The notes beneath the pieces are model-generated. The model searched no databases and was not told where the DNA came from. It worked only from the letters and a program-made list of their open reading frames with translations. From Actinomycetota bacterium (GTDB lineage Bacteria > Actinomycetota > Acidimicrobiia > Acidimicrobiales > AC-14), in the NCBI GenBank assembly GCA_034669165.1, contig JAXDOC010000014.1, forward strand, positions 41,110 through 105,109: a stretch of 64,000 nucleotides of DNA, in the 5' to 3' direction. A program made the translations under genes and the position numbers. Positions 43,071 through 58,583 of the stretch are shown here, piece after piece (the first letter of the stretch is position 1; every line of letters starts with the position of its first letter).

Positions 43071-45211
43071 CCGTCGTCCGCCCGACACCCGTCACGCCGG
43101 CGACATCGCCCCACTACCTTCCCGACGCACCCGTGCTGCGCGGCCGCCTGCTGGGCGATTCCGCCCTTCCCGCCTTCCGCCGCGGACGTGGACTGCCCGA
43201 CGATCGGCCACCGGTCTTCGGCGACGACGTGTGGCCTCTGGGCTGGGCCCACACCCGCCGCAACGTCGAGCCATCGACGCTGCTGGTCGACTTTCGTGGC
43301 ATCGAGGCGCCCGTGCGGCGGCTGACGGCGAAGGAGTATCTCTACGCCCGGCTCAACGAGCGGGTGATGGGGATCAAGTGCACCCTCCCTGTCCAGATAG
43401 TCCGCCAGGAGCTCAATTTCCTCCTCGCCTTCTTCGCCTTTCTCGACAACCAGCAGGGGGCTATGGCGCTGGGCGAAGTGGACCAGGAGGTGCTCGACGC
43501 CTACCGCCTGTGGTGTCAGGCCGGCACGAGCGGCAGGGGCGCCCCGATCGGGGCCGCCGCGGTGGCGAGCTACATCTCCGTCACCATCCGCCTGGCCCTT
43601 TGCGGCGAGTTCCTGAGCCAGGACCGCCTGCAGATCATGCCGTGGCGTGGGCGGTCGGCCTACGTCGTCGCCGGAGTGGTGGAGCGGACCGAGAACGCCA
43701 CCCCCCGCATCCCTGAGGCGGTGCTGGGGGCGCTGCTGCGCTGGGCGCTGTTCTATGTGGAGGTCGCCGCCACGGACATCCTGGCGGCGAGCAACGAGCT
43801 CGCCCAGCTGGAGGCCCGCCTGAGGACTCCCCCGGGCCCGTCAGCCCAGCTATCGGCCTGGATCGAGACCCGACGGGCAGCCGGACGGGGAATCCCCGCT
43901 CTGGCGGTGAAGGGGGATGGCGCGTCGGAGCGACGGCTGTCAGCCAACACCAACCTCGTCCGCCGGATGGCGGGTCTGCCGGGTCGCTCTCTCGACTCTG
44001 ACTGCTGCCAACGGATGCTGAGGGACGCCGTCAACGAGTTGGGACTCGAGCTGGGGGGCCTCGACACCGCGGTCTCGCCGGACCCGTCGACCGGTCGGCC
44101 ATGGCGATCGCCCTTCACTCCCAAAGACCTGCGCGTTGAGCGACGAATGGTGCAGGCCGCCTGCTACATCGTGTGCGCCTACCTGTCGGGCATGCGGGAC
44201 TCCGAGCTGCAGGAGCTGCGCCGGGGCTGCCACGTCGTCCAGCGCAGCGCCGACGGCGTGATCGGCCACCACAAGCTGCGTGGCCAGGTGTTCAAAGGTC
44301 GCGGCGCTCAGGGCGAGGAGGCGTCCTGGGTCGTGATCGACCCGGTCGTGCGGGCGGTGGAGGTCCTCGAGGCCATGCACTCCCACGACCATCTGCTCAC
44401 CTCCCCGAGCCACGACGTCTACCCCAGCCCGGCCGTCCGGTCGGGCGATCTCACCGGAGGCGCCAGACTCGGCCCCTCGGTGGTGAGGCTCATCAACGAG
44501 TTCCGGGATCATCTCAACGCCACCCAGGGCGAGGGGGGTGAGGCCGCCGTCCCCGACCACGAGGGCCGGCCGTGGCACTTCACCACCGGCCAGTTCCGCC
44601 GCACGCTGGCATGGCACATCGCCCACCAGCCCTTCGGAATCGTCGCCGGCATGCTCCAGTATCAGCACGTGTCGGTGGCGACCTTCGAGGGCTACGTTGG
44701 CCAGAGCCCCTCCGGGTTCCAGCGGGAGGTGGAGGCCGAACGCAGGCTCGCGGCCCTCGACGACCTGGTCGACGACTACCGGGACCATCTGGCGGGCCTG
44801 CCGTCGACGGGTGGGGGTGCGGCCAAGCGCAACGCCGTGTTCGCCCACGTTCACGACAGTCTCGACGACTCAGGGCCGGTGGTCGACGACGCCCGCTTGC
44901 GGGCCATGCTCAAGCACGCGGCCCGGACGCTCTACCCCGGGGTCCTCAACGACTGCTTCTTCGAGCGCGACGGCGCGCTGTGCCTCCGATCCTTCGGCGA
45001 GGGCGCCAACGAGCCGCTGCTCCCGCTCTGCCAGCCCAACCGCTGCGGCAACTCCGTCATCACCGACGGCCACGTCACGAGCTGGAAGCACGCCATCGGC
45101 GAGGTCAGAGTCCACCTCCGCCAGAAGGACCTGAGCCAGAACCAGCGCCACGCCCTGAAAGCCAAGCTCTCCGAGATGGAGGCGGCCATCGCTCCGCTCG
45201 ACCAGCCGTGA
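43067..45211 (+). CDS. Large tyrosine-recombinase-family protein (trio gene 3)
   Basis: 714 aa. The GTG at 43067 overlaps the gene 2 stop (GTGA). Motifs are YLSGMRDSELQEL (Arg I-like), TTGQFRRTLAWHIA, and LQYQHVSVATFEGYVG (His/Tyr). The C-terminal Cys cluster is CFFERDGALC...CQPNRCGNSVIT. Confidence 0.8.
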   Translation: MTVVRPTPVTPATSPHYLPDAPVLRGRLLGDSALPAFRRGRGLPDDRPPVFGDDVWPLGWAHTRRNVEPSTLLVDFRGIEAPVRRLTAKEYLYARLNERVMGIKCTLPVQIVRQELNFLLAFFAFLDNQQGAMALGEVDQEVLDAYRLWCQAGTSGRGAPIGAAAVASYISVTIRLALCGEFLSQDRLQIMPWRGRSAYVVAGVVERTENATPRIPEAVLGALLRWALFYVEVAATDILAASNELAQLEARLRTPPGPSAQLSAWIETRRAAGRGIPALAVKGDGASERRLSANTNLVRRMAGLPGRSLDSDCCQRMLRDAVNELGLELGGLDTAVSPDPSTGRPWRSPFTPKDLRVERRMVQAACYIVCAYLSGMRDSELQELRRGCHVVQRSADGVIGHHKLRGQVFKGRGAQGEEASWVVIDPVVRAVEVLEAMHSHDHLLTSPSHDVYPSPAVRSGDLTGGARLGPSVVRLINEFRDHLNATQGEGGEAAVPDHEGRPWHFTTGQFRRTLAWHIAHQPFGIVAGMLQYQHVSVATFEGYVGQSPSGFQREVEAERRLAALDDLVDDYRDHLAGLPSTGGGAAKRNAVFAHVHDSLDDSGPVVDDARLRAMLKHAARTLYPGVLNDCFFERDGALCLRSFGEGANEPLLPLCQPNRCGNSVITDGHVTSWKHAIGEVRVHLRQKDLSQNQRHALKAKLSEMEAAIAPLDQP

Positions 45212-45624
45212 GCAGCGTCAGCCCGGCCGCCGAGCAGGCGCTGCAGGAAGCCCTGGGCCGTCTCGGCGAGGGCCGACCGCTGCGATCCGACGGCGCCCTC
45301 ACCGTCTCGGGCCTGGCCGTCGAGGCGGGCGTCAGCCGGTCGACGGCCAACCGGGCCAGCACCGTCCTGGCCGCCCTGCGAGCGTTGCGGTCGGCCGCTG
45401 AGTCCCGGCCCACGCCCGCCAGCCCTGCCAGTGACGAGCGGACGGCTCGCATCGAGATGGAGCTCCTGCGCCGGGCCCACGGGCAGCGGGTGGCGGCGCT
45501 GGAGGCCTCGATCGACACCCTCGCTCAGCACGTTCAGGTGCTCACCCTCGACAATGAGCGGCTGAGGAGGACCGTTGCAACGTATGCAGGGAACGTGACG
45601 CCGATGAAGGACGCCGAGCCGTGA
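45208..45624 (+). CDS. Small HTH plus coiled-coil protein (TnpC-like position)
   Basis: 138 aa. The GTG overlaps the gene 3 stop (GTGA). It has an HTH-like segment LTVSGLAVEAGVSRSTANRA and a C-terminal heptad-like region (IEMELLRRAHGQRVAALEASIDTLAQHVQVLTLDNERLRR). Confidence 0.65.
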   Translation: MSSVSPAAEQALQEALGRLGEGRPLRSDGALTVSGLAVEAGVSRSTANRASTVLAALRALRSAAESRPTPASPASDERTARIEMELLRRAHGQRVAALEASIDTLAQHVQVLTLDNERLRRTVATYAGNVTPMKDAEP

Positions 45625-46643
45625 CCGAAGCCGAAGCCTCGGGCTCGCCCCCGCGCCTGCTCCCAATGCTCGCCGGCGGCAGCGGCTTCCCGACCAACCC
45701 CGACGCCTTTCAACTAGAGCCCAAGCTGGATGGCCAGAGGGTGATCGGGATCAGCGAACCCGCCGGCGTTACCTTGCTGAACCGTCGGGGCGGCGAGATC
45801 ACCGCCACCTATCCCGAGCTGGCCGGGCTGGCCGAGGCCCTGGCGCCGCACTCGGCCGTGCTCGACGGCGAGATGGTCACGTTCAACGAGAAGGGCCAGA
45901 CCAGCTTCCAGCGCCTCCAACGGAGGATGCACGTCAAGCAGCCGACGGCCCGTCTGCTCGCCGATACGCCGGTGTCGTTCGTCGTGTTCGACGTGCTGTG
46001 GCTCGACGGGGAGCTGCTCGTCGACCGCTCGCAGTCCGAGCGGCGGACGATCCTCGACGGCCTCGGGATCAAGGGACGGGCGTGGCAGACCGCCCCCGTC
46101 CTCGCCGCCACTCCCGAGGAGCTGATGGACGCCTGCCGTCAGCTCGGCCTCGAGGGATTCATGGCGAAACGACGCGACGCGCCCTACCTTGTCGGCCGCC
46201 GGTCGTCGGCCTGGTCGAAGATCAAGTGCGGCCGCCGACGGGAGTTCGTGGTCGGCGGGTGGTCCACCGGGAGCGGCTCCCGGGAGACCAGCATCGGTTC
46301 CCTGGCCCTTGGCGTCTATGACGTGACTCCCGAGGAGGCGGAGCGCGAAGGGCGGCCGCCGCGCCTCTTCTATACCGGCCAGGCCGGCTCGGGCCTCAAC
46401 GAGGAGATGATCCAGCGGCTCACCCGTCTCTTCGCCGAGATCGAGGAGCCGACGCCCGCGTTCGTCAACCCGCCGAGGGCGCCGCTCCATTGGGTCCGGC
46501 CCATGCTGGTCGTCGAGATCGCCTACACCGAGGTCACCGACGGCGGAACCCTTCGCCAGCCCTCGATCAAGGGCCTCCGGACCGATGTCATCGCCGACGA
46601 GGTGACGTTCGACGACGAGCTGGCGACGTGTTTCTCGAGGTGA
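45621..46643 (+). CDS. ATP-dependent DNA ligase, ligase-domain only (LigD-LigDom/LigC-like), element-borne and intact
   Basis: 340 aa. The GTG overlaps the upstream stop (GTGA). The EPKLDGQR adenylation motif, FDVLWLDGE, EGFMAKR, WSKIKC and an OB-fold C-terminus are present. Confidence 0.9.
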   Translation: MTEAEASGSPPRLLPMLAGGSGFPTNPDAFQLEPKLDGQRVIGISEPAGVTLLNRRGGEITATYPELAGLAEALAPHSAVLDGEMVTFNEKGQTSFQRLQRRMHVKQPTARLLADTPVSFVVFDVLWLDGELLVDRSQSERRTILDGLGIKGRAWQTAPVLAATPEELMDACRQLGLEGFMAKRRDAPYLVGRRSSAWSKIKCGRRREFVVGGWSTGSGSRETSIGSLALGVYDVTPEEAEREGRPPRLFYTGQAGSGLNEEMIQRLTRLFAEIEEPTPAFVNPPRAPLHWVRPMLVVEIAYTEVTDGGTLRQPSIKGLRTDVIADEVTFDDELATCFSR

Positions 46644-46713: not shown

Positions 46714-47070
46714 ATGAGCACGCCGCATGGCGACTTCCCTCGAGTGATGAAGGCGCTGGCGAACGCGCCCATCGGGACGCTCCGGGAGCTCCTCTTCAGG
46801 ATCTGCGTTATGGCCCTGGTATGCACCGTTTGGCTTGCGCGCACCTGGGCTGGAGCCATTTTCGGAACGCTGATCTTCGTGATGGCGCTGGTGGGGGGCC
46901 GCGCCGCACAACTACGAGCGGAGCAAGACGGCCGTGTTGAGCAGGAGCGGCTGCAGCAGGAAAAGTTCCGGTCCAAGGTCCACGGATGGGCCGCGGGGAC
47001 CCGCATCATGTTCTTCTTGTTCGTCCTCGGATTCCTGGCGTGGATGGTGTTCGACCTCTTCGCGGCGTGA
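46714..47070 (+). CDS. Small membrane protein (element right arm)
   Basis: 118 aa with three hydrophobic helices, in a less GC-rich region. Confidence 0.5.
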   Translation: MSTPHGDFPRVMKALANAPIGTLRELLFRICVMALVCTVWLARTWAGAIFGTLIFVMALVGGRAAQLRAEQDGRVEQERLQQEKFRSKVHGWAAGTRIMFFLFVLGFLAWMVFDLFAA

Positions 47071-47080
47071 TCATGGGACC

Positions 47081-47129
47081 GGGCTCTCTGACACACCTGT
47101 CCCTGGTGACACACGACTGTGCGGATAAC
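47081..47129. repeat. Right terminal inverted repeat of the element
   Basis: The reverse complement is GTTATCCGCACAGTCGTGTGTCACCAGGGACAGGTGTGTCAGAGAGCCC. It matches the left-end blocks TCCGCACAG and TGTGTC(T)CAGAG. Confidence 0.55.
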
Positions 47130-48050
47130 GACGGCCAGCGCATCATCGCCGTCGTGGAGGACGGCCACGTCGTCCTCGTCAACCGGCGGGGCCTGGAGGC
47201 CACCGCCACCTTCCCCGAGCTGGAAGGCATGGCCGGCGCCCTCGCCCCCCACGCGGTCGTCCTCGACGGGGAGGTGGTGGCGTTCAACGAGAAGGGCCAG
47301 ACCAGCTTCCAGCGCCTGCAGCGGCGGATGCACGTCGTCCAGCCGACGTCCCGGCTCCTGGCCGACACGCCCGTGTCCTTCGTCGCCTTCGACGTCCTCT
47401 GGCTCGACGGCGAGCTCCTCGTCGACCTCCCCCAATCCGAGCGCCGCCGGATCCTCGACGGGCTCGGGCTGAAAGGCCGGGCCTGGCAGACGGCGCCCGT
47501 CCTCGACGCCACGCCGGCCGAGCTGGTCGACGCGTGCCGCGAGGCGGGCCTGGAGGGGTTCATGGCCAAGCGGGTCGACGCCCCCTACCTCCCCGGCCGG
47601 CGCTCCACCGCGTGGTCGAAGATCAAGTGCGGCCGGCGGCGGGAGTTCGTGGTCGGCGGGTGGTCGACCGGCACCGGTTCGAGGGAGTCGAGCATCGGGT
47701 CGCTCGCCCTCGGCGCCTTCGACGTGACCCCCGACGAGGCCGAGGTCGCCGGCCGCCAGCAGCGGCTTTTCTACGTCGGTCAGGCCGGGTCCGGGCTCAA
47801 CGAGGACATGATCCGCCAGCTCACCCGCCTCTTCGCCCAGATCGAGGAGCCGCTCAGCCCGTTCGTCAACCCGCCCCGGGCCAAGCTCCACTGGGTTCGC
47901 CCGCTGCTCGTGGTCGAGGTCGCCTACACCGAGGTCACCGAGGCGGGCACCCTCCGCCAGCCGTCGATCAAGGGCCTGCGCACCGACGTCATCGCCACCG
48001 ACGTGACCTGGGACGACGAGTTGGCCGAGGCCTTCGCCGGGCGCACCTAG
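47130..48050 (+). pseudogene. 3' portion (from DGQR of the KxDG motif to the stop) of the disrupted chromosomal ATP-dependent DNA ligase
   Basis: It reads DGQRIIAVVEDGHVVLVNRRG... to the stop. It is collinear and gap-free with residues after KLDG of the element ligase. It has no N-terminal LLPMLA...FEPK segment of its own. Confidence 0.85.
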
Positions 48051-48129: not shown

Positions 48130-48360
48130 TTGTCGAATGGCGCCCATGAACTGAGCCTGGAAGACCTCGAAGCGGAGGAAGCCACCGCGCTCCCCGAGCG
48201 GGAGGCCATGTCGAAGGTCCACCTCGGCGCGGGGTTGGGCATCGACAACTTCGCCATGCCGATCAACGAGGCCACGGCCATGAACATCAACTCGACGGAC
48301 GCCGTCGCCATCGCCGACGCCGACCAGATCGTCATCATCACCCAAGCCGACGTGGACTAG
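48130..48360 (+). CDS. Small acidic peptide, paralog 1 (leader-like N-terminus plus Ala/Asp/Asn/Ile-rich C-terminus)
   Basis: A TTG start at 48130 is preceded by GAAGGGAGAAGGG. The sequence is LSNGAHELSLEDLEAEEATALPEREAMS-KVHLGAGLGIDNFAMPINEATAMNINSTDAVAIADADQIVIITQADVD. Confidence 0.6.
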   Translation: MSNGAHELSLEDLEAEEATALPEREAMSKVHLGAGLGIDNFAMPINEATAMNINSTDAVAIADADQIVIITQADVD

Positions 48361-48372
48361 GAGGACGAACCC

Positions 48373-48693
48373 ATGAGCCAGACCCAGAAGCCCGAGATGT
48401 CCCTCGAGGAGATGGACGAGGAGTCCGCCGCCGCTCTCCCCGACCGGGAGGCGATGTCGCTGCTCGACCTTGCCCTCAACCTCGACCTGGCCCTCGACCT
48501 GGCCGCACCGGTCGACGCGGCGGTCGCCGCCAACGCCAACGTGGCCGCCCCGATCGACGCGGCCGTGGCCGCCAACATCGCCTCCGTCGGGTCGGAGGCC
48601 ACCGCCGTCGCCGACCAGGACTCCGTGATCATCCAGGAGCTCGACGGCACGGCCATCGCCAACGCCACCCAGGGCGCCACCATCGAGCAGTAG
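48373..48693 (+). CDS. Small acidic repeat peptide, paralog 2
   Basis: AGGAGG lies upstream. The sequence is MSQTQKPEMSLEEMDEESAAALPDREAMS-LLDLALNLDLALDLAAPVDAAVAANANVAAPIDAAVAANIASVGSEATAVADQDSVIIQELDGTAIANATQGATIEQ. Confidence 0.7.
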   Translation: MSQTQKPEMSLEEMDEESAAALPDREAMSLLDLALNLDLALDLAAPVDAAVAANANVAAPIDAAVAANIASVGSEATAVADQDSVIIQELDGTAIANATQGATIEQ

Positions 48694-48725
48694 CTCGCCC
48701 GACCACTTTTTGGAGGAGAACCCCG

Positions 48726-49106
48726 ATGAATGAAGCAACTGGTCTTACCGACGCCGAGCTCGAGTCCCAGGACGTCACCGCCGTTCCCGACCGGGAGGCG
48801 ATGTCGGTGCTGGACGCCCTCGACCCGGCGGCACTGCTGGGGACGTCGCTGCTCAACGTCGACGTCGACCTCAACCTCGACGCCGACGTGGCTGCGCCCA
48901 TCGACGCCGCCATCGCCGCCAACGCCAACGTGGCCGCACCGATCGACGCCGCCGTGAGCGCCAACGTCCTGTCCGTCGACTCCGACGCGGCCGCCCTGGC
49001 CGACCAGGACTCGCTCATCGCCCAAGACCTCGACGGCACCGCCATCGCCACCGCCATCCAGGACGCCGGCATCGACCAGGGCGGCGCCAGCGCCGCCGCC
49101 GGCTGA
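48726..49106 (+). CDS. Small acidic repeat peptide, paralog 3
   Basis: GGAGGAG lies upstream. The sequence is MNEATGLTDAELESQDVTAVPDREAMS-VLDALDPAALLGTSLLNVDVDLNLDADVAAPIDAAIAANANVAAPIDAAVSANVLSVDSDAAALADQDSLIAQDLDGTAIATAIQDAGIDQGGASAAAG. Confidence 0.7.
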   Translation: MNEATGLTDAELESQDVTAVPDREAMSVLDALDPAALLGTSLLNVDVDLNLDADVAAPIDAAIAANANVAAPIDAAVSANVLSVDSDAAALADQDSLIAQDLDGTAIATAIQDAGIDQGGASAAAG

Positions 49107-49147
49107 GCTGACGGTCGCTCCGTACCTCCGCCTCCCGGACCCTGACG

Positions 49148-50896
49148 ATGACGCAGCAGATGGACGAGACGGTCCGCATCGCCCGGGCACCCGGGAGGCA
49201 CGGCGACCGGAAGCCGGCCCGTGAACGGCCCCCCCGTCGTGGAGACGGTCGCGAGACCGATGCCAGCGTTCCCCAGCTGGCCAGCGGGGTCGAGCTCATC
49301 GGCGAGTACGAGGCATCGGGCTACAAGGAAGCCCCCTGCCTCGTGCGCCGGGCCGACGGCCAGACGATCCAGCTGACCCCCCTGCTCTACGCGACCCTCG
49401 AGCAGATCGACGGCCAGCGCGACGTGTCCCAGATCTCCACCGCCCTGGGCGAGCGCCTGGACCGGCCGGTGAGCGCCGACAACGTGCGCTACCTGGTGCA
49501 CGAGAAGCTGCGCCCGGCGGGCGTGGTCAAGGACCGCGACGGGCGCGACCCCGAGGTGCAGAAGGCCAATCCCCTGCTCGCCCTCCGCCTGCGCCTCCAG
49601 ATCACCGGCGAGCAGGCGACGAACCGCCTCACCGCGCCCTTCGCCATCCTGTTCCGGCCGTGGGTGGTCGTGCCGGTGGTGGCCGGATTCGTGGCGGTGG
49701 TGGCGTGGGTGATCGGTTCTCGGGGCGTGGGGGCCGGCGCCCGCCAGCTCCTCTACTCGCCGGGCCTGATGCTGCTCACGTTCGCCCTCACGATCCTTTC
49801 CGCCTCGTTCCACGAGTTCGGCCACGCCGCCGCCTGCCGCTACTCGGGCGGACGACCGGGGGCGATGGGCTGCGGCCTCTACCTGGTGTGGCCCGCCTTC
49901 TACACCGACGTCACCGACGCCTACCGCCTCGACCGCCGGGGCCGCCTGCGCACCGACCTGGGCGGCCTCTACTTCAACGCCATCTTCGCCCTCGCCACCT
50001 TCGGCGTGTGGGCCCTCACCGGCGTCGAGGCCCTCCTGCTGCTCATCCCATTGCAGGTGCTGCAGATGGTGCACCAGCTGCTGCCGTTCATCCGCATGGA
50101 CGGCTACCACATCCTCTCCGACCTGGTCGGGGTGCCCGACCTGTTCGCCCGCATCAAGCCCACGCTCCTCGGCTTCGTGCCCGGCCGCCGCCACCAGGAG
50201 AAGGCGGCGGTGCTGAAGCCCTGGGTGCGGGTGGTCGTCGCCCTGTGGGTGCTCACGGTCGTGCCCCTGCTGCTCTTCAGCCTGCTGACGGTCGTGATCT
50301 CGGCCCCCCGCATGGTCGCCACCGCGTGGGACTCGATCGGCCTCCAGTGGCGGGTCGTCCGCATCGCCTTCGACACCCACAAGTGGCTGACCGTGCTCGT
50401 CGGCGGGCTGGGCGTGATCGCCCTCGCCCTCCCCGTCCTCGGCTCGGGCTACGCGGTGGGCCGGTTCGGCCGCCGGGCCGGCTCGTGGGGATGGTCGCAG
50501 GCGGGGGAGATCCGTTTCGGCCGACCGATGATGGCGCTGCTGACGGTGGGTCTGGCCGGCGCGCTGGCGTTCACCTGGTGGCCCAACGGCGAATATCGCC
50601 CGATCCAGCCCGGCGAACGGGGCACCGTCACCGACGCCGTCGCCGCCGTGTCCGACGTGGGCACGGGTCGGCCCGGCCTCACCCCGGAGACGGAGGCCGA
50701 ACTCGACGGTGCCCCCAGTCAGGCGTGGAACCTGAGCCAGGGCCCGACCGAGGAGGCGCCCCCGCCGGAGGAGGTCGTCGACGACCCGCTGACGCCCGCC
50801 GGCGACCAGTCCCCGACCCCCACCACCACCATCGCCGGCTCCGGCGACGACGAGCCGTCCTCCAACTCTGTCCCGCCGACCACCACGGCCGGCTAA
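49148..50896 (+). CDS. M50/site-2-protease-family membrane metalloprotease with an N-terminal PqqD/RRE-like domain and a Pro/Thr-rich tail
   Basis: HEFGH and the second S2P motif LLPFIRMDGYHILSD lie in TM helices. The N-terminal soluble segment is QLTPLLYATLEQIDGQRDVSQISTALGERLDRPVSADNVRYLVHEKLRPAGVV. Confidence 0.8.
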   Translation: MTQQMDETVRIARAPGRHGDRKPARERPPRRGDGRETDASVPQLASGVELIGEYEASGYKEAPCLVRRADGQTIQLTPLLYATLEQIDGQRDVSQISTALGERLDRPVSADNVRYLVHEKLRPAGVVKDRDGRDPEVQKANPLLALRLRLQITGEQATNRLTAPFAILFRPWVVVPVVAGFVAVVAWVIGSRGVGAGARQLLYSPGLMLLTFALTILSASFHEFGHAAACRYSGGRPGAMGCGLYLVWPAFYTDVTDAYRLDRRGRLRTDLGGLYFNAIFALATFGVWALTGVEALLLLIPLQVLQMVHQLLPFIRMDGYHILSDLVGVPDLFARIKPTLLGFVPGRRHQEKAAVLKPWVRVVVALWVLTVVPLLLFSLLTVVISAPRMVATAWDSIGLQWRVVRIAFDTHKWLTVLVGGLGVIALALPVLGSGYAVGRFGRRAGSWGWSQAGEIRFGRPMMALLTVGLAGALAFTWWPNGEYRPIQPGERGTVTDAVAAVSDVGTGRPGLTPETEAELDGAPSQAWNLSQGPTEEAPPPEEVVDDPLTPAGDQSPTPTTTIAGSGDDEPSSNSVPPTTTAG

Positions 50897-50919
50897 CCAC
50901 CAGCGTGATCACCAAGGAG

Positions 50920-51504
50920 ATGCCGATGAACCGCTTGGTCCGCAACCTTGTCAGCATCGTCGTCGCCGCCGGCGTCGTGCTCGCCCCCACCGCCGCCGGT
51001 GCCAGGGACGAGAACGTCGTGTACGCCGTGAACCGCACCGACGGCAGCGCTCTGGTGCGGGCGAGCGTCGACTACCGGAAGGTGAACAACGGCAAGGTCG
51101 AGGAGGAGAACCGGGCCTACGCGGTGGCCCAGTGCGTCGGCTGCCGCACCCTCGCCGCCGCCTTCCAACTGGTCCTCGTCACCAAGCCGCCGACGATCCT
51201 CGCCCCCCAGAACGAGGCCGTCGCCGTCAACAACGAGTGCGACACGTGCGTGACCTGGGCCTCGGCCAAGCAGATCGTCGTCGAGACGGGCGGGAAGGCG
51301 GAGCTGACGAAGTCCGGCCGGGACCGGTTGGAAGGGGTCGAGAACGGCCTGGAGTCCCTGCAAGAGGGGATGATGGACAAGAGCCTCGAGCAGCTGTCCG
51401 CCGAGATCGACTTCTGGTTCGCCGAGTTCCTCGACGTCGCCCAGACCGAGATCGAGCGCACCGACGGCGGCCACAACGACGCCCGGGTGATCGCCAGCCG
51501 GTAA
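50920..51504 (+). CDS. Secreted protein with two CxxC motifs (hypothetical)
   Basis: AAGGAG lies before the ATG at 50920. Signal peptide MPMNRLVRNLVSIVVAAGVVLAPTAAGA. CVGC and CDTC motifs are present. Confidence 0.65.
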   Translation: MPMNRLVRNLVSIVVAAGVVLAPTAAGARDENVVYAVNRTDGSALVRASVDYRKVNNGKVEEENRAYAVAQCVGCRTLAAAFQLVLVTKPPTILAPQNEAVAVNNECDTCVTWASAKQIVVETGGKAELTKSGRDRLEGVENGLESLQEGMMDKSLEQLSAEIDFWFAEFLDVAQTEIERTDGGHNDARVIASR

Positions 51505-51508
51505 ACGC

Positions 51509-52084
51509 CTAGGACGCGCCCACCGGCTCGATGCCGAGGTCGCGGTAGGTCAGCAGGGCGCGGAACGGCACCCCGAGCTCGGCGAAGATGGCGGCGGTGG
51601 CCGGTCCCCGGTCGACCATCGCCGTCACCCCCACCACCTCGGCCCCGGTTTCCCGGACGGCGTGGTAGGCGTCGAGCACCGACCCGCCCCGGGTGACCAC
51701 GTCGTCGACCACGAGCACCCGCACGCCCGGGCCCAACGTGGCCCCCTCGACCCGGCGCTTGGTCCCCCGCTCCTTGGCCGCCTTGCGCACCACGAACCAG
51801 GCCCGGTCGGCGACCATGGCCACCGCGTGGGAGAAGTGGTCGGCGCCGAGGGTGAGCCCACCCACGGCGTCGAAGTACCACCCCTCCTCGGCCGCCATCT
51901 GGACCAGTGCCTCACCGGCCAGGCGCAGGTCGGCCCCGCGGGCGAAGGCGCGCTTGTTGTCGATGAAGTCCCGGCTCCAGTCGCCCGAGGCCAGCTGCAC
52001 CGGCTCGTCGAGCTGGAGGTGCCCCTTGGCCAGGATGATCTCGACGAGGGCCTGTCGGACCTCGGCGAGGGGGCGGGGCGGCAT
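51509..52084 (-). CDS. pyrE: Orotate phosphoribosyltransferase
   Basis: 191 aa. The PRPP-binding motif VLVVDDVVTRGGS and the overall PyrE-like layout are present. Confidence 0.8.
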   Translation of the reverse strand: MPPRPLAEVRQALVEIILAKGHLQLDEPVQLASGDWSRDFIDNKRAFARGADLRLAGEALVQMAAEEGWYFDAVGGLTLGADHFSHAVAMVADRAWFVVRKAAKERGTKRRVEGATLGPGVRVLVVDDVVTRGGSVLDAYHAVRETGAEVVGVTAMVDRGPATAAIFAELGVPFRALLTYRDLGIEPVGAS

Positions 52085-52182: not shown

Positions 52183-55100
52183 GTGCGCATCCCCGCCGTC
52201 GTCGGCCAGCGGGCCGCCGGCCTGGTGGGCCGGGTGTGGGCCCTGCGGCAGGTGGCGGAGTGGCTCGACGCCGGCGCGGAGCGGCTGTTCCTGCTCACCG
52301 GCGAGCCGGGGGCGGGCAAGTCGGTGCTGGCCGCCTGGCTGGCGGGGGCGGGTCCGGCGCCCGCCGAGCCTGACGCGGCCGCCGCCCTCGAGCGGGTGCG
52401 GGCGTCCTGGTCGGCCGGCTGCTTCTGCATGACCCGGGGCCAGGACGGGGCCGACATCACCCCCGCCTGGTTCGTCACCAGCCTGGTCAAGCAGCTCTCC
52501 GCCCGTCACCCGGCCTTCGCCGACGCCTTCCTGCGGGTCAACGCCCCCGAGCTCATCCACCAGGAGGTCGGGGCCAACCAGGGCACCGTCGTCGGCCACA
52601 TCGGCGACCTCGACGTGAAGCTCCCCGACGCCGGCGACCGCTACGCCCAGGGCGTGGTCGAGCCGCTGCGGGCCATGGCCGAGGCCCATCCCGACCAGAC
52701 CTTCGCCATCCTGGTCGACGGCGTCGACGAGGCGTTCGTGGGCCCCGAGCCCACGGTGTTGTCGCTCCTGGCCCGGTCGGGGAGCCTGCCCGCCAACGTC
52801 CGCTTCTTCGTCACCAGCCGCTACGAGCGCAGCCTGGTGACCCAGCTGCAGGACGGGTTCGGGGGCGACGTCCGCCACCTCGACCTGTCCTCCGGCGACG
52901 GGGCCGCCCGCAACGAGGAGGACGTCCGCCTGTTCGTCCGGGCCCGGCTGGCGACGGTCGACCCGGCCGCGTCCGACGCCGTGGTCGAGCAGCTGGCCCA
53001 GCAGGCGGCGGGCAACTTCCTCTTCATCGACTTCCTCCTCGACGAGCTGGCCAAGGGCACCCGCACGCTCACAGACACCGCCGAGCTGCCCACCGGCCTG
53101 TTCGACCTCTACCGCCAGTACCTGCAGCGCATCGTCCCCGGGTTCGCAGAGCGGGAGCGGGGACCGGAGTGGGGCGACCACTACCAGCCGCTCCTGGGCA
53201 GCATCAGCGTGGCCCTGCCCGCCGCCCCCGCCGACCACCTCCTGCGCTGGCTGGAATGGGACGACGACGACCTCAGCCGCTTCCTCCAGACGGTCGAGCA
53301 GGTCACCGAGTGGGAGCCGGCCGCCGACGCAGCCGTGGGGGAGGGCGGCGCGGGTGGCGCCGGCGGATGGCGCCTCTACCACCGCTCCCTGGCCGACTTC
53401 CTGGGCACCCGCTACCTCGACGACCGGGGCTCCGACAACCGCTTCTACGTGGCCCCGCCCAAGCAGCACGACCGCATCGTCCGCCACTACCAGAAGGCCC
53501 GGGCCGACCTGTGGGGCGGCGACTGGGCCAACTGCGACGACGGTTACTGCCTGCGCAACCTCGTCCGCCACCTGGCGGCCAGCCTGCCCGCCCTGGAGAA
53601 GCCGGCCGACAAGGCCGCCCGCACCGGCGAGCTGTTCGACGTGGTCCTCGACCCCGGTTTCCGCGCCCGCCAGCGGGAGGTCCCGGGGGGGCCGGCGGCG
53701 ATGTACGACGACGTCCGCACCGCCATCGAGCTGGGCCTCGCCGCCCCAACGGCGGGAGGCGACGACCGGCTGGTTGGGCTGGTCGAGACCATGGCGGTGG
53801 CGCCCGAGGTCGAGCTGCGGGGCCTGGCCGCGGAGGCGCTGGTGCGGCTGGCGGCGCGGGACGCGGCCGACGGAACCCGCCGGGCCCTCGACACCATGGT
53901 CGAGCTGCTGGCCACCGACTCGGCCGACGCCTGGAACGTGGTCCTCAAGACCGCCGCCTCCCTGCCCGGGCCCGGCGGCCTCGACGTCTTCCGCCGGGCC
54001 GCGGCCGACGAGCGAGAGGCCCTGCGCCAGGCGGCCGGCCTGTACGCCTACCTCCAGTGGCGGCCCGACGACCCCAACTGCCTGCCCGTCCGGCTCTACG
54101 CCGACCTGGTGCCGACGGTGACCATCACCGGGCAGATCCTCCACCAGAAGGATCGCCTGGTGCTCGACTTCCTCGCCGGCCTGTCGATCATGGTCTACGT
54201 CAACCACCCCGACCGGCCCGAGGTCGTCGACCAGACCGCCACCCTCTTCTACGAGCTGCTCAAGAACCGGCTCAAGCTCCACCTGCTCAACCTGAAGGCG
54301 TTCGTCAAGATCGCCACCCCGGTGGTGGCCCAGGTGTACTCCAAGCGCCTGCTCGACGCGGCCCTGTTCAGCGGGTTCCAGGACGCGGGCGAGTTCTTCG
54401 CCGCCGACCGGAAGGCCATCGAGCGGGTGGTCCCCCTCGTCGACCCGGCCACCGACATCCTCTCCCGGGGCGACGACCTGGCCGCCCTCCTCCAGTCGCC
54501 CCTCGCCCTGTCGCGGATGGTGGGCTCGATGGTGCTGGCCATCCACGCCTTCCACGACCCGGCCGGCACCGATCCGTTCGTCCGGGACCTGTTCGGGCGC
54601 CTCGACGACACCGGCCGGCGGTGGACGCTGTGGGCCTACGCGGTGCTGATCGAGAAGGCGCCCCCGGCGTGGACGCCGCTGCTGGAGGACCTCACCCGCC
54701 AGTTCGTGGCGGAGAACCGGGCCGCCTTCCTGTCCGCCGACGGCGGCACCCGGGTGCCGTTCGACATCGACCTGCTCCCCCTGGGCCTGGCCTACGGCAA
54801 GCAGGGCGGCCCCCTGACCTACTTCGAGACGCTCCTGGCCGGCGCCGACGCCACCATGCTCCCCCGCGTGATCCGGGGCCTGGCCGCGGTCGGGTTTTAC
54901 CAGCCCCAGGCGGTGCTGCAGACCCTGCGCACGTCGGTGCCGAACCTGCTCGATCCGGCCCTGGAGGACAGCTTGGCCACCACCCTGGCCACCATCCGGG
55001 TGCTCCACGCCGACACCGTCGACCTGTTCCTGCGTGACGTCGGCGCTCCCGACCGGCTCCGGCAGCTGGTGGCGGAGCGGGGCGACATCGAGCTGGTCCG

Positions 55101-55305
55101 CCGCTACATCGTGTGGATGGGCTTCTACAACAACGGGGTCCACCAGGCCCTTTTCCACCCCAAGATGCGGGTCGGCCTGCTGGCGGTGATCCTCGATGCC
55201 CTGGCCACGGCCAAGAACGACAAGGCCTTCGTCCGCCAGATCACGCCCGGGCCCATGAACCTGGCCCGGGAGGCCGACTACCACCTGGAGCGGTGGACCG
55301 AGTGA
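52183..55305 (+). CDS. NACHT-type STAND NTPase with a long C-terminal helical-repeat (sensor-like) region
   Basis: 1040 aa, GTG start. Walker A LTGEPGAGKSVL, Walker B FAILVDGVDE (the NACHT-typical DGxDE) and FFVTSRYE (the NACHT TSR motif) are present. About 700 aa of alpha-helical repeat-like sequence follow. Confidence 0.85.
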   Translation: MRIPAVVGQRAAGLVGRVWALRQVAEWLDAGAERLFLLTGEPGAGKSVLAAWLAGAGPAPAEPDAAAALERVRASWSAGCFCMTRGQDGADITPAWFVTSLVKQLSARHPAFADAFLRVNAPELIHQEVGANQGTVVGHIGDLDVKLPDAGDRYAQGVVEPLRAMAEAHPDQTFAILVDGVDEAFVGPEPTVLSLLARSGSLPANVRFFVTSRYERSLVTQLQDGFGGDVRHLDLSSGDGAARNEEDVRLFVRARLATVDPAASDAVVEQLAQQAAGNFLFIDFLLDELAKGTRTLTDTAELPTGLFDLYRQYLQRIVPGFAERERGPEWGDHYQPLLGSISVALPAAPADHLLRWLEWDDDDLSRFLQTVEQVTEWEPAADAAVGEGGAGGAGGWRLYHRSLADFLGTRYLDDRGSDNRFYVAPPKQHDRIVRHYQKARADLWGGDWANCDDGYCLRNLVRHLAASLPALEKPADKAARTGELFDVVLDPGFRARQREVPGGPAAMYDDVRTAIELGLAAPTAGGDDRLVGLVETMAVAPEVELRGLAAEALVRLAARDAADGTRRALDTMVELLATDSADAWNVVLKTAASLPGPGGLDVFRRAAADEREALRQAAGLYAYLQWRPDDPNCLPVRLYADLVPTVTITGQILHQKDRLVLDFLAGLSIMVYVNHPDRPEVVDQTATLFYELLKNRLKLHLLNLKAFVKIATPVVAQVYSKRLLDAALFSGFQDAGEFFAADRKAIERVVPLVDPATDILSRGDDLAALLQSPLALSRMVGSMVLAIHAFHDPAGTDPFVRDLFGRLDDTGRRWTLWAYAVLIEKAPPAWTPLLEDLTRQFVAENRAAFLSADGGTRVPFDIDLLPLGLAYGKQGGPLTYFETLLAGADATMLPRVIRGLAAVGFYQPQAVLQTLRTSVPNLLDPALEDSLATTLATIRVLHADTVDLFLRDVGAPDRLRQLVAERGDIELVRRYIVWMGFYNNGVHQALFHPKMRVGLLAVILDALATAKNDKAFVRQITPGPMNLAREADYHLERWTE

Positions 55306-56342
55306 CGACGTGGGCGCCGGTGGTCCGTCGTCACCGGCGGTTGCAGGCGGTGGGCCTGTTCGTCCGCCTGTCGGCGCTGGGGACCACGCTGGCGGTGGTC
55401 TTGCTGGGGGCGGCGTCGGTGTCGCCCGCCCTGCCGTGGGCGACGGCCGCCGTCCTCGTGATCGTGGCCGTCGGGTTCCACGTCTACTTCTTCGTGTCGA
55501 ACGACGTGATCGACCTTCCAGTGGACCGCCTCGAGCCCCGACGGGCGGTGAGCCCGCTGGTCCGGGGGACGATCAGCCGCGGCGCGGCGCTGGCCATCGC
55601 CCTGGGCGCGGTGCCGGTGACGCTGGCCGTGGCCGGCGCCGGGCCGGGAGGGGCGAGAGCGTGGTGGGCGCTGATCGTGTGCTTCGCCCTGATGACCGTC
55701 TACAACCTGCTCAACAAGCGGACGTCGGTGCCGTGGCTGCTCGACCTGGTCCAAGGCGTGGGGTGGGCCGCGTTCTTCCTCTACGGCGCCGCCACCCGCG
55801 GTTCGTGGACGCCACTCACCTGGTGGTCGGCCGCCTTCTGGGTCGGGTTCATGGTGCTGGCCAACGGCGTCCACGGAGCGCTGCGGGACGTGGCCAACGA
55901 CGCCCGCTGCGGTGCCCGCACCACCGCCATCGCCATGGGCGCGAGGGCCGACGCCGACGGGCGGGTTGTTCTCCCCCGCGGTGTGGTCGCCTACGCCTGG
56001 GCGCTGCACGTCGGGCTGGTGGCCATCGTCCTCGGGGCGTGGGCGTTCGGCGACCTCGGGTACGGCGCCGTGGCGCGGGGCGGGACGCTCGTCGCCGTCC
56101 TCGGGCTGGGGGCGACCGGGGCGTGGGCCCTGTCGGCCGCCGCGATCAGTGACGGCGACCCGGAGCCGCTGCGCCTGGCCGGCACCCTGCACCTCCTCCT
56201 GCTGATGGCGATGCCGGTGGTCCTGCTGCTCCCGTGGTTGGCGACCGGGTTCCGGCTGGTGGTCGTGGTCGGCTTCCTCGCCCCGTTGGCCGCCCTCGGC
56301 TGGCTGCCCGACACGGTCAGGTGGGTGCGCCGGTGCCGCTGA
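55302..56342 (+). CDS. UbiA-family prenyltransferase (integral membrane)
   Basis: 346 aa. The GTG at 55302 overlaps the NACHT stop (GTGA). Asp-rich motifs NDVIDLPVDR and RDVANDARCGARTTAI are present. About 8-9 TM helices. Confidence 0.8.
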   Translation: MTTWAPVVRRHRRLQAVGLFVRLSALGTTLAVVLLGAASVSPALPWATAAVLVIVAVGFHVYFFVSNDVIDLPVDRLEPRRAVSPLVRGTISRGAALAIALGAVPVTLAVAGAGPGGARAWWALIVCFALMTVYNLLNKRTSVPWLLDLVQGVGWAAFFLYGAATRGSWTPLTWWSAAFWVGFMVLANGVHGALRDVANDARCGARTTAIAMGARADADGRVVLPRGVVAYAWALHVGLVAIVLGAWAFGDLGYGAVARGGTLVAVLGLGATGAWALSAAAISDGDPEPLRLAGTLHLLLLMAMPVVLLLPWLATGFRLVVVVGFLAPLAALGWLPDTVRWVRRCR

Positions 56343-57757
56343 CCCGCTTCCGCGACCTCGTCCTCCTCGCCGACCAGGTGAAGGTGCGCGACGGGCGGCT
56401 GGCGTCGTTCGTGGTGCGCGTGTTCGAGTCGCCCGCCGGCGAGGGCGAGCAGGCGGAGCGGGTGAAAGTGCCGAGTGACCTGGACGTTCGCGTCGGTTGG
56501 CTCGACCGGCGCCAGATCGACGCCGACCTGGGGGCCCAGATCGAGCTCGGTACGATCCTCGGTCTCCTCCTCCTTCCGCCCTACGCCCGGGGGCTCTTCC
56601 AGGCCAGCCTGGCTGTGCCGGCGAACGACGAGGGGCTCCGGGTCCGGCTGCGGCTCGACCCCGCCCTGGCCGATGTCCCGTGGGAGCTGGCCTGGGTGGC
56701 CCGTCACCAAGGGGAGCCGACGGCGGCCGGGTTCCTCGCCCTCGACCCCCGGATCTCGATCGTCCGCCACGAAGCGGTGGCCACGCCGGTCCCCTCCGTC
56801 TCGGCCGAAGTCGCTGGGCGGCGGGTCGTCGTGGCGTTGGCCAGTCCCGACGGCTACCCGCCGTTGCCGTCACTGGCCGCCGAGCGGGAGGCGCTGTCCG
56901 AGGCCCTCGACGGCGTGGCCGGGGTGACGGCCACGTTCGTCGACGACGCCACCCCGGCGTCCGTCCTCGACGCCCTGTCCGCCGGCGCCGACATCTTCCA
57001 CTTCTCCGGTCACGGCACGGCCGACGGGGGCGTCGTGCTGGCCGGCGCCGACGGCACCGCGCAGGTGGTGCCGGCCGACCGCCTGGCCGAGATGGTCCAG
57101 GCCAAGGGCGTGCGCCTGGCCGTGCTCGGCGCCTGCGACACCGGCCGCCGGGACGACCACAACGTGTGGGGGGGCGTGGCCGCGGCCCTCGTGGAGCGGG
57201 GCGTGCCCGCGGTGGTGGCCATGCAGTTCACCATTGGCGACCGGAAGGCGGCCGCCTTCGCCAGCGCCCTCTACCGGGCTCTGGTGGCGGGCCTCACCGT
57301 CGACGAGGCCGTCGCCCTCGGCCGCACCGCCATCCGCACCGTCTCCACCGATGCCCAGGCTGACGTCCGCGACTGGGCCGTCCCCGTCCTCTACCTGCGG
57401 GATCACGGCGGGCGGGTGTTCGAGCCGGTGTCGTCGGCCGCCGCCCGGGCCGAGGCCGAGGCCGGGTCCGCCCACCTCTACCAGCAGCGGGTGGGGACGG
57501 TCTCCGCCGGCGGCCTGGTGCTCGGCGCGCTCCTGGGAGCCGGGTCCACCGAGAGGGTGGAGATCGACCAGGACGCGGAGCGGGTCGACGGACGGTTGAT
57601 CGGCGTCGTCGGCCCCGGCGAGGGCAGCGTCCACGTCGACCAGGACGTCGAGGTGGTCGGCGAGGGGGGACTCGTCCTCGGCGGGGCCACCTCCCCCGAG
57701 GACGCGGCCCGAGCCATGGAGCTGCTCCGGGGCGTCCCGCCAAAGGACGACGGTTGA
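56333..57757 (+). CDS. CHAT-domain (caspase-like) protease
   Basis: 474 aa. The GTG at 56333 overlaps the UbiA gene by 10 nt. ...LADVPWELAW..., the catalytic His (IFHFSGHG) and Cys (LAVLGACDTG), and AVVAMQFTI are present. Confidence 0.85.
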   Translation: MPLTRFRDLVLLADQVKVRDGRLASFVVRVFESPAGEGEQAERVKVPSDLDVRVGWLDRRQIDADLGAQIELGTILGLLLLPPYARGLFQASLAVPANDEGLRVRLRLDPALADVPWELAWVARHQGEPTAAGFLALDPRISIVRHEAVATPVPSVSAEVAGRRVVVALASPDGYPPLPSLAAEREALSEALDGVAGVTATFVDDATPASVLDALSAGADIFHFSGHGTADGGVVLAGADGTAQVVPADRLAEMVQAKGVRLAVLGACDTGRRDDHNVWGGVAAALVERGVPAVVAMQFTIGDRKAAAFASALYRALVAGLTVDEAVALGRTAIRTVSTDAQADVRDWAVPVLYLRDHGGRVFEPVSSAAARAEAEAGSAHLYQQRVGTVSAGGLVLGALLGAGSTERVEIDQDAERVDGRLIGVVGPGEGSVHVDQDVEVVGEGGLVLGGATSPEDAARAMELLRGVPPKDDG

Positions 57758-57785
57758 CCGTACGATCGATGGGCAGGAGGTAGCC

Positions 57786-58583
57786 GTGGCTCGATCGATG
57801 TGGTCCGGGGCCATCAGCTTCGGGCTGGTGAACGTGCCGGTGAAGCTCTACAGCGCGGTGTCGCCCAAGGACGTCCGCTTCCACCAGATCGACGCCAAGA
57901 GCAAGTCGCGGGTGAAGCAGAAGCGGGTCTCGGCCGCCACCGGCGAGGAGGTCCCCTACGAGGACATCGTCAAGGGCTACGAGCTGGGCCCCGACACCTA
58001 CGTGATGATCTCCCCCGAGGAGCTCAACGCCCTCGACCCCAAGGCCACCCGGTCGATCGACATCGAGGACTTCGTCGACCTCGACCAGATCGACCCCATC
58101 TACTACGACCACCCGTACTACCTGGCGCCCGACAAGGGCGGGGCCAAGGCCTACGTCCTGCTGCGGCGGGCGATGCAGGAGACGAACAAGGTGGGAATCG
58201 CCCGGGTCGTGCTGCGGACCAAGCAGTACCTGGCCGCCATCCGGCCCCTGGGGCGGGCCCTGGTGCTGGAGACGATGCTCTACCCCGACGAGGTCAACCC
58301 CCTCGACGACCTCGAGGTCCCCGGCGACGAGATCGAGGTCACCGAGCGGGAGGAGAAGATGGCCCGCCAGCTCATCGACTCGCTCACCACCGACTTCGAC
58401 CCCGACAAGTACAAGGACGACTACCGCGAGCGGGTCCTCCAGCTCATCGAGCAGAAGGCCGCCGGCCAGGAGATCGTGGTCGAGGAGGCCGCCGACGACG
58501 CCCCCAAGGTCGTCGACCTCATGGCCGCCCTGGAAGCCAGCCTGGCCGCGGTCAAGAAGGGCAAGCCCGCCGACAAGAAGTAG
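57786..58583 (+). CDS. ku: Ku protein (NHEJ DNA end-binding)
   Basis: AGGAGG lies upstream of the GTG. MARSMWSGAISFGLVNVPVKLYSAV...YYLAPDKGGAKAYVLL and a Lys-rich C-terminus are present. Confidence 0.9.
   Translation: MARSMWSGAISFGLVNVPVKLYSAVSPKDVRFHQIDAKSKSRVKQKRVSAATGEEVPYEDIVKGYELGPDTYVMISPEELNALDPKATRSIDIEDFVDLDQIDPIYYDHPYYLAPDKGGAKAYVLLRRAMQETNKVGIARVVLRTKQYLAAIRPLGRALVLETMLYPDEVNPLDDLEVPGDEIEVTEREEKMARQLIDSLTTDFDPDKYKDDYRERVLQLIEQKAAGQEIVVEEAADDAPKVVDLMAALEASLAAVKKGKPADKK

Follow-up and report, generated by a model that had tools for sequence, protein, structure and literature searches.

A candidate leader-guided maturation module for β-repeat proteins in Actinomycetota, with an intramembrane protease and a two-CxxC domain

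We analysed a stretch of 64,000 nucleotides (nt) from an Actinomycetota bacterium (the window; GC = 72%), in which five co-directional genes occupy positions 48130-51504 of the + strand. They code for three small proteins, named here pep1, pep2 and pep3, a membrane protease with an HExxH motif and a secreted protein with two CxxC motifs. We propose that these genes constitute a module for the leader-guided proteolytic maturation of otherwise unmodified β-repeat proteins, which would probably act at the cell envelope; we put the probability of this reading as a whole at about one half. Its best-supported part is the link between the protease and its presumed substrates, for which sequence comparison argues well, because a conserved leader adjoins a protease whose homology to a known leader peptidase takes in the recognition domain, and because leader and protease are co-inherited in nearly all of 80 related loci, collected by a scan of one genome per GTDB species, the peptide genes being decayed where the protease gene is deleted. 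The features of the module are as follows.

48130-48360, + strand: pep1, 76 aa, TTG start; G+C content at third codon positions (GC3) 0.91; GGGAG Shine-Dalgarno site 6 nt upstream of the TTG
48130-48213, + strand: pep1 leader, about aa 1-28
48373-48693, + strand: pep2, 106 aa; GC3 0.97; GGAGG Shine-Dalgarno site
48373-48459, + strand: pep2 leader, aa 1-29, followed by a single 77-aa β-repeat module
48726-49106, + strand: pep3, 126 aa; GC3 0.91; GGAGGAG Shine-Dalgarno site
48726-48806, + strand: pep3 leader, aa 1-27, followed by a short spacer, one module and a Gly/Ala tail
48880-48966, + strand: 42-nt tandem repeat in pep3, the DNA-level trace of a 14-aa unit
49148-50896, + strand: HExxH membrane protease, 582 aa, identified by its open reading frame (ORF), motifs and NCBIfam match
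49265-49537, + strand: N-terminal domain of the protease, about aa 40-130
49811-49825, + strand: protease motif HEFGH, aa 222-226
50093-50110, + strand: protease motif RMDGYH, aa 316-321
50926-51504, + strand: secreted two-CxxC protein, 192 aa, with signal peptide; GGAGG-type Shine-Dalgarno site
50926-51003, + strand: Sec-type signal peptide of the CxxC protein, about aa 1-26
51133-51144, + strand: CVGC, aa 70-73 of the CxxC protein
51238-51249, + strand: CDTC, aa 105-108 of the CxxC protein

GC3 lies at 0.91-0.97 in all five frames, as fits the coding frames of a genome with 72% GC, and we therefore take all five to be real genes; the long antisense ORFs over the locus are the usual artefacts of high-GC DNA. 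The public annotation of the same locus (GCA_034668845.1) contains the identical five products of 76, 106, 126, 582 and 192 aa. An earlier note on this DNA had described three tandem paralogs with a shared N-terminal block and strong Shine-Dalgarno sequences at pep2 and pep3. The paralogs and the GGAGG-type sites are indeed present, the block is conserved throughout the family, and pep1 has a ribosome-binding site of its own; upstream of the protease gene, no obvious Shine-Dalgarno site was found. The locus gave no match in Rfam, a promoter and terminator scan returned no promoter-like site and a single terminator-like match that did not exceed shuffled sequence, and PADLOC connected none of the five genes with a defence system.

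The shared block is a leader with the consensus L-[ST]-x-[ED]-E-L-x-A-E-x4-L-P-D-[KR]-E-[VA]-[MVL]-S among 105 non-redundant sequences, followed directly by LLDL. It is present in a single copy per protein, about 20 residues from the initiator Met, even in proteins with two or three repeat modules. The peptides have no signal peptide, and nowhere in the family does one replace the leader. The core that follows is built from a 77-residue module, present in one to three copies per protein, with the consensus LLDLNVDLDLALDL / AAPIDLAVAANANV / AAPIDAAVSANVLS / xGSxAxAxAxQxxxIxQ / xLxGxAxAxAxQxSxIxQ. Each module comprises one strand of alternating Leu and Asp, two AAPIDAAVAAN(A/V)N(V/L) units and two AxAxAxQxxxIxQ units, and its conserved Gln residues keep the fixed spacing Q-x5-Q-x11-Q-x5-Q. 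The two 14-aa repeats AAP(I/V)DAA(V/I)AAN and the conserved tail of the earlier note are recognizable in this architecture, the former also as the 42-nt tandem repeat of pep3.

The composition of the module is highly biased: among 128 non-redundant modules, Ala accounts for 25% of the residues, Asp and Leu for 11% each, Val for 9% and Asn for 7.5%, while Lys and Arg together amount to 0.4%, aromatic residues to 0.6% and Cys to 0.1%. The cores of pep2 and pep3 carry 11-16 acidic residues and no Lys or Arg, and direct reading confirms that they are devoid of Cys and aromatic residues too, with pep1 as the exception already noticed. Hydrophobicity alternates with a period of 2 along module positions 1-42 (p<=0.003), conservation does so along positions 43-77 (p<0.0005), and there is no power at the helical angle. 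Because of this period-2 signal in both properties, we predict that the module forms β-strands with one conserved face, in keeping with an earlier preference for β-strand building blocks over classical antimicrobial peptides.

In conservation, the core equals or exceeds the leader. The initial comparison with precursors of ribosomally made peptides with post-translational modifications (RiPPs), a leader plus a variable core in multiplied copies, is thus only partly upheld: the logic of leader and core stands, but the core is a highly conserved 77-residue module with relatives 70-90% identical, and the copies are not interchangeable. Indeed, the core of pep1 is a truncated half-module with one NFAMPINEATAMN unit and one AxAxAxQxxxIxQ unit, and pep1 represents a distinct, conserved subtype that has its own orthologs in Acidimicrobiia and Solirubrobacter, with 72-88% identity and the same Met start. 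In Actinomycetes, a single gene encodes the leader, a module, a Pro/Thr/Gly-rich linker and a second module. Orthology of pep2 and pep3 with modules A and B of these two-module proteins is not supported, since both score slightly nearer to module B. The linkers between modules, like the C-terminal tail of the protease, are acidic and rich in Pro, Thr and Ser, which we read as typical of extracytoplasmic linkers. In some Nocardioides proteins (L047 9812-11443; P0291, P0297), the linker has grown to 200-300 residues of 'VVDSAGNIIGTLD'-type repeats, which match Pfam DUF3659, a family without an assigned function.

The peptide family is large. A search with pep2 recovered 1581 homologs at E<=0.01 with a best E of 2.7e-46, a similarity far beyond chance; the typical relative has 104 aa, is 70-90% identical, comes from one of many metagenomes, is in nearly all cases labelled hypothetical and has no Pfam domain. 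The peptide profile, run against 1.84 billion cluster representatives, matched 658 clusters (50% identity) at E<=1e-3, of which 136 reached E<=1e-30. No Pfam or NCBIfam model matched the family, and the peptides showed no domain of these collections even at E<=10. Amyloid, chaplin and peptidoglycan-binding families gave no match to the module, and neither the peptide profile nor the CxxC protein nor the protease found a relative by sequence in the PDB. In long family members, Pfam scans revealed no additional domains besides the DUF3659-like linker repeats and coiled-coil noise. Literature searches with the characteristic peptide motifs, with the combination of a RiPP recognition element (RRE) and M50, and with the automatic gene names returned no paper, and nothing on this module was found in the supplements of the daptide paper; the view that no described family fits has therefore held. 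RefSeq names the Arthrobacter and Mycetocola homologs (WP_414958901.1, WP_354499684.1) 'peptidoglycan-binding protein'. As no such domain (PG_binding, LysM, SPOR etc.) is detectable in them with Pfam or NCBIfam up to E<=10, we consider this name an unverified automatic label.

The protease carries the HExxH motif and the downstream (L/M)DG motif in hydrophobic segments, as expected for a site-2 protease of the M50 type. Among 115 relatives, HExxH is found in 115 and the DG motif in 104, at a spacing fixed at 96 residues. Hydropathy and the distribution of Arg and Lys predict a cytoplasmic N-terminal domain, about 6-7 membrane helices and an acidic Pro/Thr/Ser-rich C-terminal tail (aa 478-582). 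The NCBIfam model of the daptide intramembrane metalloprotease (NF041824) matches aa 60-376 with E=1.7e-34 and 119.6 bits, over model positions 15-335 of 379, and this match takes in the N-terminal domain of the model. The model of the epipeptide protease YydH/LiaK matches as well (E=8e-11), under its equivalog cut-off. Judged by these matches, the protease is a member of a family related to the daptide peptidase and not its equivalog. MpaP, the daptide peptidase, is a site-2 protease with an RRE fused to its N-terminus and cleaves off a leader with the motif ELExMEAP (Ren et al., 2023; PMC10036551). The N-domain of our protease, predicted to be cytoplasmic, looks like an RRE/PqqD-like winged helix. 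The functional tie between peptides and neighbouring protease that the earlier note had supposed thus gains weight from the homology to the RRE-fused daptide peptidase and from co-occurrence in nearly every locus.

The secreted protein, noted before together with the membrane protease, has the features ascribed to it: a signal peptide and four cysteines (C70, C73, C105 and C108), which are invariant in 36 homologs. Its AlphaFold2 (AF2) model is confident, with a mean predicted local distance difference test (pLDDT) of 87 and a predicted template modelling score (pTM) of 0.79. It shows six strands, alternately of 8 and 12 residues, arranged in three strand-turn-strand units of about 33 aa, and two long helices behind them. 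The three units are also visible as sequence repeats (z=6.7 and 3.5), and the CxxC motifs are placed in the turns of units 2 and 3. Weak Foldseek matches of the model are almost all β-solenoids, the FapC amyloid being the first (E=0.039), which amounts to a hint of a solenoid-like stack and no more.

The supposition that the CxxC protein is an independent neighbour did not hold, for in 44 loci one ORF of about 830 aa encodes both, with the CxxC protein as C-terminal domain of the protease; each of the 43 proteins of fused size that were examined contains exactly two CxxC motifs. The fused form predominates in Actinomycetes, whereas in the window the CxxC protein is secreted separately. This fusion argues that protease and CxxC domain act together. 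Moreover, the signal peptide of the split form and the C-terminal position of the CxxC domain in the fused form require that the tail of the protease lies outside the membrane. The fusion also accounts for the fact that public pipelines label both the protease and the small CxxC protein 'putative peptide zinc metalloprotease protein', a yydH-derived name.

The 80 loci belong to Acidimicrobiia, Thermoleophilia (including Solirubrobacter deserti and Gaiellaceae), Actinomycetes (including Arthrobacter, Nocardioides, Mycolicibacterium lacusdiani, Naasia, Mycetocola, Agromyces and Frankiaceae) and one Limnocylindria bin. Many of them were obtained from the MFD soil samples. Homologs keep the layout of leader and core, and next to the peptide genes lie protease homologs in 76/80 loci, in agreement with what the earlier note had proposed to check, and CxxC homologs in 74/80. 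Of the four loci that lack the protease, two are at a contig edge and two are decayed. In one of the latter (L012, 9911-10664), a pep2-like gene is cut short, and a deletion that removes the protease and CxxC genes extends to the tail of a lipoprotein gene; in the other (L073, 375-656), a frameshifted peptide fragment is all that remains. This suggests that the peptides are not retained without the protease. When all flanking ORFs were clustered, two families alone were widely shared, the peptides in 70 loci and the protease in 71; the CxxC gene was missed by the ORF filter of this clustering and was recovered by tblastn. The next family, a short-chain dehydrogenase, is found in 14 loci at scattered positions, and no other family in more. 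We conclude that the module comprises neither a tailoring enzyme nor an immunity gene or transporter: the 10 kb to either side hold no conserved one in the 80 loci, so that the absence of a modifying enzyme and of an ABC exporter, seen before in the cluster, extends to the whole sample.

The module shows some variation in its order and components. The genes are arranged as peptides, protease and CxxC protein in the window, and as peptides, CxxC and protease in L010, L011, L016-L018, L022 and L045, from Solirubrobacteraceae and some unclassified Actinomycetes bins. In one subclade, the CxxC gene is directly followed by a gene for a lipoprotein-like protein of about 270 aa (N-terminal ...VAGGCGQ; L008 8770-9603, L013 4063-4851, L014 12951-13778, L015 13299-14126, L019 11232-12050, L021 13951-14739). 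The protein has no Pfam match, a remnant of its gene persists in the decayed locus L012, and it may be a fourth component in that lineage. The hit in the Limnocylindria bin (L059; Candidatus Limnocylindria, a Chloroflexota-assigned bin, DATADC010000202.1) lies on a 13.8-kb contig that ends just after the peptide gene; either horizontal transfer or a binning error may explain it.

We propose the following course of maturation. The three small proteins would each begin with an acidic leader of about 28 residues, whose motif LSxEELxAE...LPD[KR]E[VA]xS would be bound in the cytoplasm by the winged-helix N-domain of the protease. The site-2-type protease would then cut off the leader near the ...EAMS/LLD junction, as MpaP does on daptide precursors. 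No further modification is proposed, as no tailoring enzyme travels with the module, and the released product would be the conserved, acidic, Lys/Arg-free and all-β module of 77 residues. The two-CxxC domain would serve as the extracytoplasmic partner of the protease: mature modules may reach the envelope and associate there in a β-structured assembly, for which the three-rung CxxC domain could be a receptor or an anchor. The envelope and self-association are suggested by the outward-facing partner domain, the Pro/Thr-rich linkers, the near absence of Lys and Arg and the repetitive all-β modules. A more elaborate version would make of it an actinobacterial surface-polymer system, a functional-amyloid-like or narrow β-solenoid material with a RiPP-type leader, an RRE-guided protease, anchoring or nucleation by the CxxC domain, an export that is neither Sec, Tat nor ABC, and pep1 as a minor capping or nucleating subunit; in this full form, we hold the idea to be tentative and on the unlikely side.

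Several observations weigh against leader-guided maturation at the envelope. Judged from other site-2 proteases, the catalytic site of the protease is expected to face the cytoplasm, and no exporter is conserved in the 80 loci, which leaves the way of the core to the outside unexplained. The protease stays at about 120 bits, below the equivalog cut-off of 300 bits of NF041824, and Pfam M50 (PF02163), whose gathering cut-off is 27.2 bits, is matched with 10.9 bits (E=0.28). The assignment of the N-domain to the RRE type relies mainly on homology to the daptide protease, the direct PqqD-like matches being weak but consistent: TIGR03859 at aa 81-117 (E=0.14) and, in register, PDB entries 3g2b (E=0.32) and 5sxy (E=0.62), while Pfam PqqD matches 4/18 members of the protease family with a best E of 0.0033. 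In L005, the protease is present and the adjoining CxxC gene is absent. Foldseek found nothing significant for the CxxC model in the PDB (best E=0.039, TM-scores <=0.28), and the peptides and the CxxC domain lack a significant likeness in sequence that would speak for templating. A 'VNRTDGSALVRAS'/'IQELDGTAIANAT' pair looked suggestive of templating by sequence likeness, but this candidate was rejected with an hhalign probability of 1.6% and z=0.2-2.2 for local alignments against shuffled sequences. For pep2, AF2 (48-sequence alignment) gives one long helix with pLDDT 62 and pTM 0.27, which we set aside as uninformative in view of its low confidence and of the family-wide period of 2 with no helical period. 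Finally, the entire proposal draws on sequence and predicted structure.

The main rival is regulated intramembrane proteolysis, in which the CxxC domain would be a sensor, for instance of redox state or of a metal, that gates the protease, and the cut of the pro-sequence would free an acidic protein inside the cell. Site-2 proteases cut at the cytoplasmic face, and some of them process soluble proteins with short N-terminal pro-sequences; SpoIVFB of Bacillus strips such a sequence from soluble pro-sigma-K, and its accessory CBS domain is cytoplasmic. Compared by catalytic motifs only, our protease is of the same site-2 type, its presumed substrate is a non-membrane protein with a short N-terminal extension, and it has, like SpoIVFB, an accessory and possibly regulatory domain. 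The lack of a conserved exporter, the peptides without a signal peptide and the four invariant Cys in an outward-facing domain would all suit this explanation. Yet the accessory domain here is outside the membrane rather than cytoplasmic, and the substrate is no sigma factor: it is a low-complexity, all-β repeat protein nearly free of Lys and Arg, with one to three modules, long Pro/Thr/Gly-rich linkers and three paralogs per locus, which we judge atypical of a cytoplasmic regulator, and no DNA-binding, sigma or anti-sigma domain was detected with Pfam or NCBIfam. We thus consider regulated proteolysis unlikely, and two other explanations less likely still.

The first of these is a true RiPP with tailoring enzymes encoded outside the locus; a radical-SAM epimerase, for instance, could produce alternating D and L residues and a polytheonamide-like β-helix, and the leader would be removed after modification. 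A leader, a putative RRE and several precursors are the layout of a RiPP cluster, the strict period-2 pattern would also suit alternating modification, and the protease matches the epipeptide protease YydH/LiaK too. The leader/core layout of the general RiPP definition is present, but no radical-SAM, YcaO, dehydratase, methyltransferase or other such enzyme is conserved in the 80 loci over the 10 kb to each side or present in the window, and a strongly conserved module of 77 aa, with up to three copies per protein, is unlike known RiPP cores; we find this explanation improbable. Even less probable are unmodified class II-like bacteriocins or signalling peptides, freed by removal of the leader and used in competition or cell-cell communication. 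Several tandem leader-bearing paralogs beside a dedicated protease recall such systems, and the daptide-type relatives are membrane-active peptides. However, the cores of pep2 and pep3 are long and strongly acidic with no basic residues, an identity of 70-90% across many genomes shows no diversification, and neither an immunity gene nor a transporter is conserved in the 80 loci.

The comparison with described systems places leader-guided maturation nearest to the daptides. Daptide clusters hold a mean of 2.3 precursors, and the precursors MpaA1-3 share an invariant C-terminal Thr and the ELExMEAP leader motif (PMC10036551). The clusters further encode a DUF-RRE protein, an oxidative decarboxylase, an aminotransferase, a methyltransferase and ABC transporters (PMC10036551). 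Both systems have a membrane HExxH protease, homologous across the catalytic and the N-terminal domain, the latter a recognition domain in daptides and a putative one here, and several tandem precursors with a conserved acidic leader motif near the cleavage site (a predicted site in our case); the protease removes the leader in daptides and would do so in our module. In contrast, pep1, pep2 and pep3 end in D, Q and G, respectively, and the leader motif is LPD[KR]E[VA]xS; MpaB, MpaC, MpaD, MpaM and the ABC transporters are absent from the neighbourhood in the window and not conserved in the 80 loci; the products are acidic β-repeat modules of 77 aa instead of short hydrophobic helices; and the protease possesses additional membrane helices, comes with a two-CxxC domain outside the membrane and scores far under the family cut-off. 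The module therefore resembles the leader-removal step of daptides and fails every other defining feature of them. The epipeptide system YydFGHIJ is alike in the match of the protease to the YydH/LiaK model, but neither a radical-SAM epimerase nor an ABC transporter is found near our module and the substrates are unrelated. The likeness to curli (CsgA/CsgB) and Fap is one of style only: strand-turn-strand units with much Ala, Asn and Gln, Gln residues conserved at a fixed spacing, pep1 as a minor truncated paralog next to the major ones, and FapC and β-solenoids at the head of the weak, non-significant Foldseek matches of the CxxC domain. The differences are that neither Curlin_rpt (PF07012) nor another Pfam family matches at E<=1 to 10, that the peptides have no signal peptide, and that CsgG/E/F-type or other conserved secretion genes are missing.

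The surroundings of the module in the window contain the following features.

39848-41242, + strand: tyrosine integrase
40791-43070 and 42677-45211, + strand: two large ORFs after the integrase, no Pfam match
45621-46643 and 46986-48050, + strand: two tandem ATP-dependent DNA ligase (LigD-like) paralogs directly upstream of pep1, 80% identity over 303 aa
46714-47070: small ORF between the ligases, no family match
51509-52084, - strand: phosphoribosyltransferase, convergent, weak ShosT match
52183-55305, + strand: STAND-type ATPase (AAA_16 / NPHP3_N), 1040 aa, downstream of the module
55302-56342, + strand: UbiA prenyltransferase
56153-57757, + strand: CHAT protease-domain protein, weak SAVED_CHAT and BovA matches in PADLOC
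57600-58583, + strand: Ku gene, 9 kb downstream

Only 5 related loci have ligases beside the peptides, and the ligases are therefore not part of the module. In L081, another assembly of this locus, a single ligase copy lies upstream. The STAND ATPase, UbiA, CHAT and phosphoribosyltransferase genes together may form a defence-like island. The tyrosine integrase and the two large ORFs after it hint at a mobile or variable segment in this region or close to it.

What is known in this module is the logic of maturation; new are the family of substrates, the partner domain outside the membrane and the lack of tailoring enzymes. Until now, a leader combined with a recognition domain and an intramembrane protease has been linked with small modified peptides, the daptides described in 2023. 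In our module, this machinery goes together with a large and strongly conserved family of presumably unmodified β-repeat proteins and with a new extracytoplasmic domain, in at least three classes of Actinomycetota that include the cultivable genera Arthrobacter, Nocardioides, Mycolicibacterium and Solirubrobacter. As the cores contain no trypsin sites, routine proteomics would miss the mature products. If these assemble at the envelope, they would represent a new way of building surface material and would pose a new export problem; if they act inside the cell, the module would be a new signalling use of site-2 proteases.

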